A stretch of DNA of 64,000 nt from Escherichia phage Mizar: the sequence record PV714129.1. One strand, given 5' to 3'. Below the pieces are notes generated by a model. That model searched no databases. It was not told the DNA's origin and was given only the letters and a program-made list of their open reading frames with translations. Numbering within the stretch: the stretch's first letter is position 1; the number at the start of each line of letters is the position of its first letter. The position numbers and the translations under genes are program-made. Positions 8,911 to 8,940 of the stretch are shown piece by piece.

Positions 8911-8940
8911 ATTATACTCCAACCATCCTTGGTTGTAAAC
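8911..8940 (-). promoter_or_regulatory. T4-type early promoter, cassette with 30-nt conserved core (approx.)
   Basis: minus-sense GTTTACAACCAAGGATGGTTGGAGTATAAT: -35 GTTTAC, 18-nt spacer, -10 TATAAT; the same core recurs near 50929 and 51949. Confidence 0.6.

Follow-up and report, generated by a model that had tools for sequence, protein, structure and literature searches.

We here describe a family of four near-identical, compact sigma-70 promoter cassettes in a T4-type phage that probably act as homology linkers for the exchange of neighbouring genes. The window, that is, the whole stretch of DNA analysed, comprises 64,000 nt of Escherichia phage Mizar (PV714129.1, one strand). It is 99% identical to Shigella phage SHSML-52-1 and approximately 95% identical to RB69, which places the source phage in Mosigvirus, the RB69-like group of T4-type phages. 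Each cassette occupies the entire stretch from the stop codon of a non-essential early gene to the ATG of the gene that follows. Within it are a -35 element reading TTTACA or TGTACA and, across a 17-nt spacer, a TATAAT -10 element, followed by a 5' UTR and a Shine-Dalgarno sequence. In the model that we propose, their near-identity and direct orientation allow the copies to serve the phage's own recombination system as short homology linkers. Exchange between two neighbours would then remove (or, in reverse, insert) the one gene between them and leave a single functional hybrid promoter behind.

The initial annotation had reported a 30-nt minus-strand sequence, GTTTACAACCAAGGATGGTTGGAGTATAAT, as essentially unchanged at 8911-8940 (copy A) and 50929-50958 (copy C), and both copies are in fact exact. 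A search with the 30-mer gave no match in 100 dinucleotide-preserving shuffles, in line with a chance expectation of none, which rules out a chance or low-complexity origin. The similarity of the exact pair also exceeds the 30-mer, with 31 identical nucleotides and 91% identity over 54 nt (8895-8948 versus 50913-50966), and it continues into the 5' UTR, where TCTATCTTAACTA is common to cassettes A and C. Two further copies had been described as single-base -35 variants, and their positions are correct. Copy D (51949-51978, minus strand) has two mismatches to the 30-mer, ATGTACA replacing GTTTACA. For copy B (8354-8383, minus strand) the description is incomplete: it has four mismatches over the 30-mer (TTGTACATCC...GGAT; the 22-nt core pattern matches at 8354-8375) and carries, besides the -35 change, two mutually complementary spacer changes, A>T and T>A. 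Every copy lies on the minus strand, making the four direct repeats of one another, and successive copies are spaced 557, 42,018 and 1,020 bp from start to start. A gapless scan of the complete SHSML-52-1 genome with up to nine mismatches returned the same four copies only. A fifth copy, GTTTACATCCAAGGACGGATTAGAGTATAAT, is more diverged and has a 1-nt insertion; it lies upstream of SHSML-52-1 gp119 (approximately 74,730-74,800 of that record), beyond the part of the genome that corresponds to the window.

Each copy sits in a short intergenic gap, and all elements are on the minus strand. Cassette A (8881..8944) is the entire 64-nt gap from the dexA stop to the motB.1 ATG, with TTTACA at 8934-8939, an inverted repeat (CAACCA-AGGA-TGGTTG, hereafter the hairpin) at 8920-8935, GGAG at 8917-8920 and TATAAT at 8911-8916. 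Cassette B (8324..8385, 62 nt) runs from the motB.1 stop to the motB ATG and has TGTACA at 8377-8382, a hairpin with a compensated stem (CATCCA-AGGA-TGGATG) at 8363-8378 and the -10 element at 8354-8359. Cassette C (50901..50962, 62 nt) fills the gap between the nrdC.5 stop and the nrdC.3 ATG, with its -35, hairpin and -10 at 50952-50957, 50938-50953 and 50929-50934, respectively. Cassette D (51923..51978) extends from the last base of the nrdC.6 stop (TGA) to the nrdC.5 ATG; its core occupies 51949-51978, with TGTACA at 51972-51977, the hairpin at 51958-51973 and the -10 element at 51949-51954. Across the four cassettes the distance from stop to ATG is 55-64 nt, from stem to -10 3 nt and from -10 to ATG 26-30 nt. 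The genes that they would serve all lie on the minus strand, in the same orientation as the promoters, and both loci contain non-essential genes of the motB and nrdC.x clusters. Between cassettes A and B lies a motB.1-like gene (8386..8880) encoding a 164-aa protein of the MotB family (Pfam PF17613), followed by motB (7868-8323) of the same family. Between D and C lies nrdC.5 (50963..51922; 319 aa, DUF7235, Pfam PF23882), followed by nrdC.3 (49950-50900). The window contains three tandem MotB-family paralogs (7439-7858, 7868-8323 and 8386-8880, minus strand) with the common C-terminal motif GxxxDxWxEDGxxLxNxV, and the RB69 record splits the counterpart of 8386-8880 into two annotated ORFs, motB.1 and ORF012c.

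The reading of the four copies as early promoters is well supported at the level of sequence and has been predicted before. Copies A and C (TTTACA-17-TATAAT) match 11 of the 12 sigma-70 hexamer positions and copies B and D (TGTACA-17-TATAAT) match 10, and with their 17-nt spacers the four sites are the best sigma-70 matches of their regions. Each also has the set of features by which T4-type early promoters (-35 GTTTAC/TTTACA, -10 TATAAT) are recognized: a -35 element, a spacer of 17 +/- 1 nt and a -10 element a short way upstream of a gene on the early strand. The site is labelled 'promoter' in one GenBank record. In RB69, early promoters were predicted at all four sites, using an HMM built on the T4 early consensus, with scores of 27.2 bits for Pe:8947 (A), 6.2 for Pe:8387 (B), 27.8 for Pe:51019 (C) and 18.2 for Pe:52042 (D) (Nolan et al. 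2006, PMC1524935, Additional file 3). The initial annotation had proposed strong early promoters. Consensus, position and the RB69 predictions agree with early promoters, but only the GTTTACA copies (A and C) look strong as predicted promoters, the TGTACA copies scoring 18 and 6 bits. The RB69 predictions fall on the same four sites of a genome approximately 95% identical to the window, and the searched parts of that paper give their coordinates and scores, with no mention there of the near-identity of the sites, their bracketing of dispensable genes or the spacer hairpin.

Natural hybrid junctions between neighbouring copies are present in sequenced relatives, of which about 150 were surveyed by BLAST of window positions 49900-53050 and 7300-9700. 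At the nrdC.5 locus the match of some relatives is shorter by exactly 1,020 bp, the C-D spacing. In p000v and F2 the sequence passes from the nrdC.6 end and copy D's ATGTACA through the core common to both copies into the 5' UTR and ATG of nrdC.3, which come from copy C, and a hybrid junction lacking nrdC.5 is found in 21 of 153 matching records. At the motB.1 locus some relatives are approximately 557 bp shorter (the A-B spacing), and dexA is joined directly to motB in about 20 records. Here the crossover point varies. vB_VIPECOMC06 retains copy A to the end of its AACC..GGTT stem and continues from there as copy B into the motB UTR, whereas NHEP36 and phi25-307 have only GTTTACA from copy A and then the ATCC..GGAT stem of copy B, placing the crossover before the stem. 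The two junction types mean at least two separate exchanges, or two alleles, inside a 30-bp target. Both modules, motB.1 and nrdC.5, are thus dispensable and polymorphic, and every absence leaves one hybrid promoter, with breakpoints within the repeat. Assembly error is an unlikely source of these junctions, given that sequencing reads are longer than a 30-bp repeat and that many laboratories have contributed records with these junctions. Each event may have been a deletion or an insertion, and the module-less genomes could be ancestral.

The proposal in the initial annotation that the repeats are recombination substrates is therefore borne out for the A/B and C/D pairs by junctions at the repeats in related genomes, but not for the pair separated by 42 kb. 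According to the annotation of SHSML-52-1, the 42-kb interval contains genes 43, 41, 45, 44/62, 46/47, 55 and uvsX, with DNA polymerase, helicase, primase, clamp, clamp loader, gp46/47, gp55 and UvsX among its products. Loss of these essential replication genes would be lethal, and duplication of the 42 kb would take the genome beyond its size of approximately 170 kb and be too large to package. No rearrangement between the copies 42 kb apart was seen among the related genomes compared. At most, the distant copies would undergo short-tract exchange. Alleles of the A and C 5' UTRs (CTT versus GAA after the -10; AACTA versus AACGA) are common to both copies in some genomes and not in others, and this sharing, at few informative sites, is at most suggestive of concerted evolution.

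Several other origins of the repeat family can be weighed against exchange between linkers. Joint duplication of gene and promoter is not the whole story, since similarity is far lower among the downstream proteins than among the promoters: the MotB paralogs are 31-44% identical and nrdC.3, nrdC.5 and nrdC.6 have no mutual BLAST similarity, in contrast to 87-100% identity between the promoter copies. Independent selection or retention of each copy as a strong promoter, with the indels produced by unrelated mechanisms, would agree with the extended consensus common to T4-type early promoters and with the several other families of similar promoter/UTR cassettes in the window. We consider it highly improbable, given that both indels end inside the repeats and leave seamless hybrid promoters with flanks from different copies, that the motB.1 indel has two junction types, and that selection for promoter strength does not account for identity at 17 spacer bases, an exact match of 31 nt or 91% identity across 54 nt. 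Scarcely more probable is site-specific mobility, in which a dedicated recombinase or homing endonuclease would recognize the hairpin and move the cassette. The hairpin is conserved inside the exchange zone, homing endonucleases are abundant in the annotations of T4-type genomes and similar promoters with a hairpin in the spacer occur in unrelated uncultured viral contigs; the crossovers, however, fall on either side of the stem, neither locus is adjoined by an endonuclease or recombinase gene, and T4 recombination itself uses homologies of less than 50 bp (Singer 1982, as cited in PMC2839356).

Homologous exchange between cassettes hence remains the preferred reading, and the four-copy family stands out as the clearest case of something that is general in the window. 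Other families of repeated early-promoter/5'-UTR cassettes (for example, 88% identity over 43 nt and 94% over 33 nt) are located at 6792-6834, 55023-55065, 20589-20621, 53571-53603, 12032-12096, 19842-19888 and 61809-61868, and many of these have TGATAGGTCTATAGTATCA on the plus strand in common; the families could be further recombination linkers. The identity of the spacers deserves separate consideration. RNA polymerase does not read the spacer base by base, and the constancy of the spacer is likely to reflect common descent or exchange among the copies together with a second constraint, the encoding of a hairpin.

This spacer hairpin, which is absent from the initial annotation, has a 6-bp stem and an AGGA loop and is followed by GGAG; in copy B a double change keeps the stem. 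It is weak, with a folding energy of -5.3 kcal/mol, and is out-competed by other folds in some contexts. No Rfam family match was found anywhere in the window. A terminator role is not supported for a stem of this energy, inside the spacer and with no T run, and no terminator-like site is listed at the four cassettes. In the four cassettes the hairpin lies 4-9 nt past the stop codon of the preceding gene (6-11 nt elsewhere, counted by eye), always on the transcribed strand, and the distance from its stem to the -10 varies from 0 to 5 nt between sites. Lying upstream of the start expected from the cassette's own -10, it would be present only in read-through RNA from upstream genes.

Hairpins of the same type, with other compensated stems, recur upstream of related genes, also in other genera: CACCA/TGGTG at alc and ACCCA/CGGGT at nrdC.6 (window 53015-53028, minus strand) in Mosigvirus, AGCCA/TGGCT at nrdC.3, CCACA/TGTGG at nrdC.4 and rIIA.1 and TACCA/TGGTA at nrdC.7 in T4, and TACCA/TGGTA at nrdC.6 and CATCCA/TGGATG at nrdC.4 in JS10 (Dhakavirus). 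The element upstream of nrdC.6 in the window (53009..53033, minus strand) has a MotA-box-like GCTTTA (53028-53033) 13 nt before TATAAT (53009-53014) with the hairpin ACCCA-AGGA-CGGGT between them; it looks like a middle promoter, and T4 nrdC.7 and JS10 nrdC.6 have the same layout. A further hairpin, GCCA-AGGA-CGGC (30296..30307, minus strand), is located 6 nt past the gene 43 stop (...DMFDF*), preceded by TGATATAAT and with no -35; the 30296-30320 region precedes a gene annotated as arabinose-5-phosphate isomerase in SHSML-52-1. T4 has a dispersed promoter pair of its own, in that the rIIA.1 and nrdC.4 promoters (approximately 2445 and 50960, minus strand) read TAGTTTACTTT[A/G]CCACAAGGATGTGGTATAAT, are identical at 31 of 32 positions 48.5 kb apart and both contain the hairpin CCACA-AGGA-TGTGG.

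Base pairing around the loop is far more frequent than expected. In a test that did not presuppose the stem, 9 of the 20 CAAGGAYG sites of SHSML-52-1 have at least three further flanking pairs, compared with 0.3 expected (binomial p of approximately 8e-12; four of the nine belong to one family), and according to the annotation tables flanking pairs are present at all seven sites in short intergenic gaps. In T4, 4 of 12 such sites have flanking pairs, all on the early-transcribed strand and directly upstream of gene starts. Across 14 distinct hairpin sites, a set gathered partly with the structure in view and including several sites related by descent, 86.9% of cells are paired versus 61.5% in shuffles, and the covariation score is 0.56 versus 0.11, a value reached by none of 500 shuffles and with slid controls far lower. 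At one stem position A-U, U-A, C-G and G-C all occur, and the AGGA loop and the CCA/YGG pairs are fixed. The position after the stop codon, the varying distance to the -10 and the fixed orientation of an asymmetric loop argue for a base-paired strand, most simply in read-through RNA, rather than a dimeric operator. The covarying AGGA-loop hairpin is a secondary observation, and possibly a new one.

The same hairpin type is found across T4, RB69-like and JS10-like phages, possibly also in unrelated phages. In IMG/VR, a query with the nrdC.3 protein returned only four loci, and a pattern scan returned mostly chance matches together with a few promoter-like hairpins in unrelated contigs. Two uncultured viral contigs, of 363 kb and 102 kb, carry perfect TTGACA...TATAAT promoters with a hairpin centred on CCAAGGATGG as the spacer (GCCCA/TGGGC and TCGCCA/TGGCGA), and the phage collection contained no match to either contig. 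The motif may thus extend beyond T4-type phages.

Two readings of what might recognize the hairpin can be compared. A DNA operator, with the 16-bp spacer palindrome bound by a dimeric phage or host protein that represses or modulates the promoters (a MotB-family autoregulator being one candidate), is improbable. The palindrome does occupy a classic repressor position between -35 and -10, two of the four cassettes drive MotB-family genes, and the authors who described PeSL cassettes speculated about protein recognition of a conserved stem-loop (PMC2839356). However, reading of half-sites would fix bases, and all four Watson-Crick pairs are seen at one position; the loop is asymmetric and constant in its orientation to transcription, its distance to the -10 varies and a hairpin is also found downstream of a -10-like box (30296-30307). 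T4 MotB, moreover, has been reported to bind DNA without sequence specificity, which counts against an operator. An RNA element is somewhat easier to reconcile with these observations, though still unlikely as the main constraint. The hairpin would be an intercistronic signal in read-through RNA with the promoter hexamers overlaid on it, presenting GGA in its loop ahead of GGAG-UAUAAU and read by a GGA-specific factor: either the host RNA-binding protein CsrA, with translational repression or titration as the outcome, or the phage nuclease RegB with S1, which would cut the polycistronic RNA between cistrons. Such a role would be an added layer, compatible with the cassette and linker explanation. 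The stem covaries around a constant AGGA loop and CCA/YGG pairs, the element is always on the transcribed strand and close after a stop codon, and its settings include early-type promoters, MotA-box-type promoters and one context that lacks a -35.

For CsrA, the comparison is with the E. coli SELEX consensus RUACARGGAUGU, in which GGA lies in a hairpin loop (Dubey 2005, as quoted in PMC6692469). The hairpin matches this consensus at 9 of 12 positions, including all eight of the core, CAAGGAUG being equivalent to CARGGAUG, and its paired mismatch (A..U to C..G) keeps the pair; the T4 variants match at 10 of 12, and T4 nrdC.4 and rIIA.1 have exact ACAAGGAUGU. As in CsrA/RsmA binding hairpins, a short stem presents GGA in its loop, and three of the four cassettes have a second GGA 35-45 nt away, in the downstream Shine-Dalgarno. 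The likeness to CsrA sites is a sequence resemblance, and the element here is upstream of the start expected from its own promoter; a literature search for CsrA and T4-type phage transcripts found no published link.

For RegB, the T4 motB leader site GGAGUAUAAAA is a proven strong RegB/S1 cleavage site, but 28 of 30 tested intergenic GGAU sites in T4 are RegB-resistant and secondary structure inhibits RegB (Durand et al. 2006, PMC1702504), which makes cutting at the loop GGAU unlikely. The proven site aligns with GGAGTATAAT of the window's motB cassette, where GGAGTATAATG is at the matching place, 38 nt before the ATG compared with 35 in T4, and the T4 nrdC.3 and RB69 motB cassettes have GGAGTATAAAT. 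Compared with the RegB consensus GGAGAAUAAAA, an unstructured intergenic GGAG followed by an A-rich 7-mer, the copies (GGAGUAUAAU followed by C, G or A) match at positions 6-9, are mismatched at position 10 and match at position 11 in one copy, deviating there in the other three. The copies have U at position 5, a base that cleaved T4 RNAs tolerate, and the hairpin stem ends on the first G of GGAG. A separate promoter of T4 motB lies approximately 20 nt upstream of GGAGTATAAAA, with its own hairpin spanning the -10 (GGGACC...GGTCCC). The T4 site is thus transcribed from that upstream promoter and corresponds to the -10 box in the window's phage, where the same bases would appear in read-through RNA only.

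Taken with the promoter and linker roles, an RNA signal would give a 30-mer that is constant because it is read three ways: as a DNA promoter, as a recombination linker and as an RNA signal consisting of the hairpin and GGAG, bound by CsrA or cut by RegB/S1. We regard this threefold reading as speculative and rather unlikely, and its RNA layer as at best slightly less so. Either CsrA or RegB recognition would help to explain the constancy of all 30 bases, and messages from the cassette's own promoter would then escape control acting on the polycistronic read-through RNA. The AGGA-loop hairpin in promoter spacers, including those of T4, is a testable lead to undescribed post-transcriptional control, and binding by host CsrA would constitute a new host-phage link.

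The junctions provide a natural case, in about 150 relatives, of how T4-type phages could gain or lose single accessory genes with the expression of the neighbours undisturbed, the promoter itself being the splice point. For phage engineering and therapy stocks, motB.1 and nrdC.5 would be modules open to spontaneous loss or swap.

Promoters embedded in hairpin regions are known from T4, in which the genes e, soc, 49 and I-TevI have translation-blocking leader hairpins, so that read-through and promoter-proximal RNAs fold differently (reviewed in PMC3014915). Those hairpins sequester the Shine-Dalgarno, whereas the cassette hairpin lies 40-50 nt upstream of the ATG and excludes it. Elsewhere in the window, in the early promoters at 7384-7443 (minus strand) and near 58228, 57779 and 53618, the spacer is perfectly complementary to the Shine-Dalgarno region downstream (tctcctctggtt / aaccagaggaga, 12 bp), and there the ribosome-binding site would be sequestered in read-through RNA only, not in locally started RNA.

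The closest known system is the promoter-early stem-loop (PeSL) cassettes of T4-type phages, described in RB49/phi1 (Arbiol et al. 2010, PMC2839356) and also found in PST/T4 and nt-1/KVP40 (Comeau et al. 2014, PMC4122927). PeSLs are defined by a terminator-like stem-loop upstream of a promoter; recombination between them deletes or inserts the intervening gene, and mini-circles have been detected experimentally (PMC2839356, PMC4122927). In common with PeSLs, the cassettes described here are short, conserved and intergenic, combine a sigma-70-like early promoter with a stem-loop and a Shine-Dalgarno, and border non-essential genes of hyperplastic regions; close relatives differ by exactly the gene between two cassettes, with the crossover within the cassette. 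The copies also fit the T4/PST PeSL promoter consensus TTTACW-N17-TAYWAT (PMC4122927). In contrast to PeSLs, the stem-loop here is inside the -35/-10 spacer, short, weak and without a T run, hence not terminator-like, and its loop is an invariant AGGA, compared with the G-run/C-run stems of RB49 and the AGNA...TCNT stems of PST/T4. RB69-like phages were outside the analysis of the two PeSL papers. On this comparison the cassettes are PeSL-type shuffling elements, here in Mosigvirus, a known behaviour in a new group, which would extend the PeSL model to the RB69 group with crossovers in as little as approximately 25 bp of identity.
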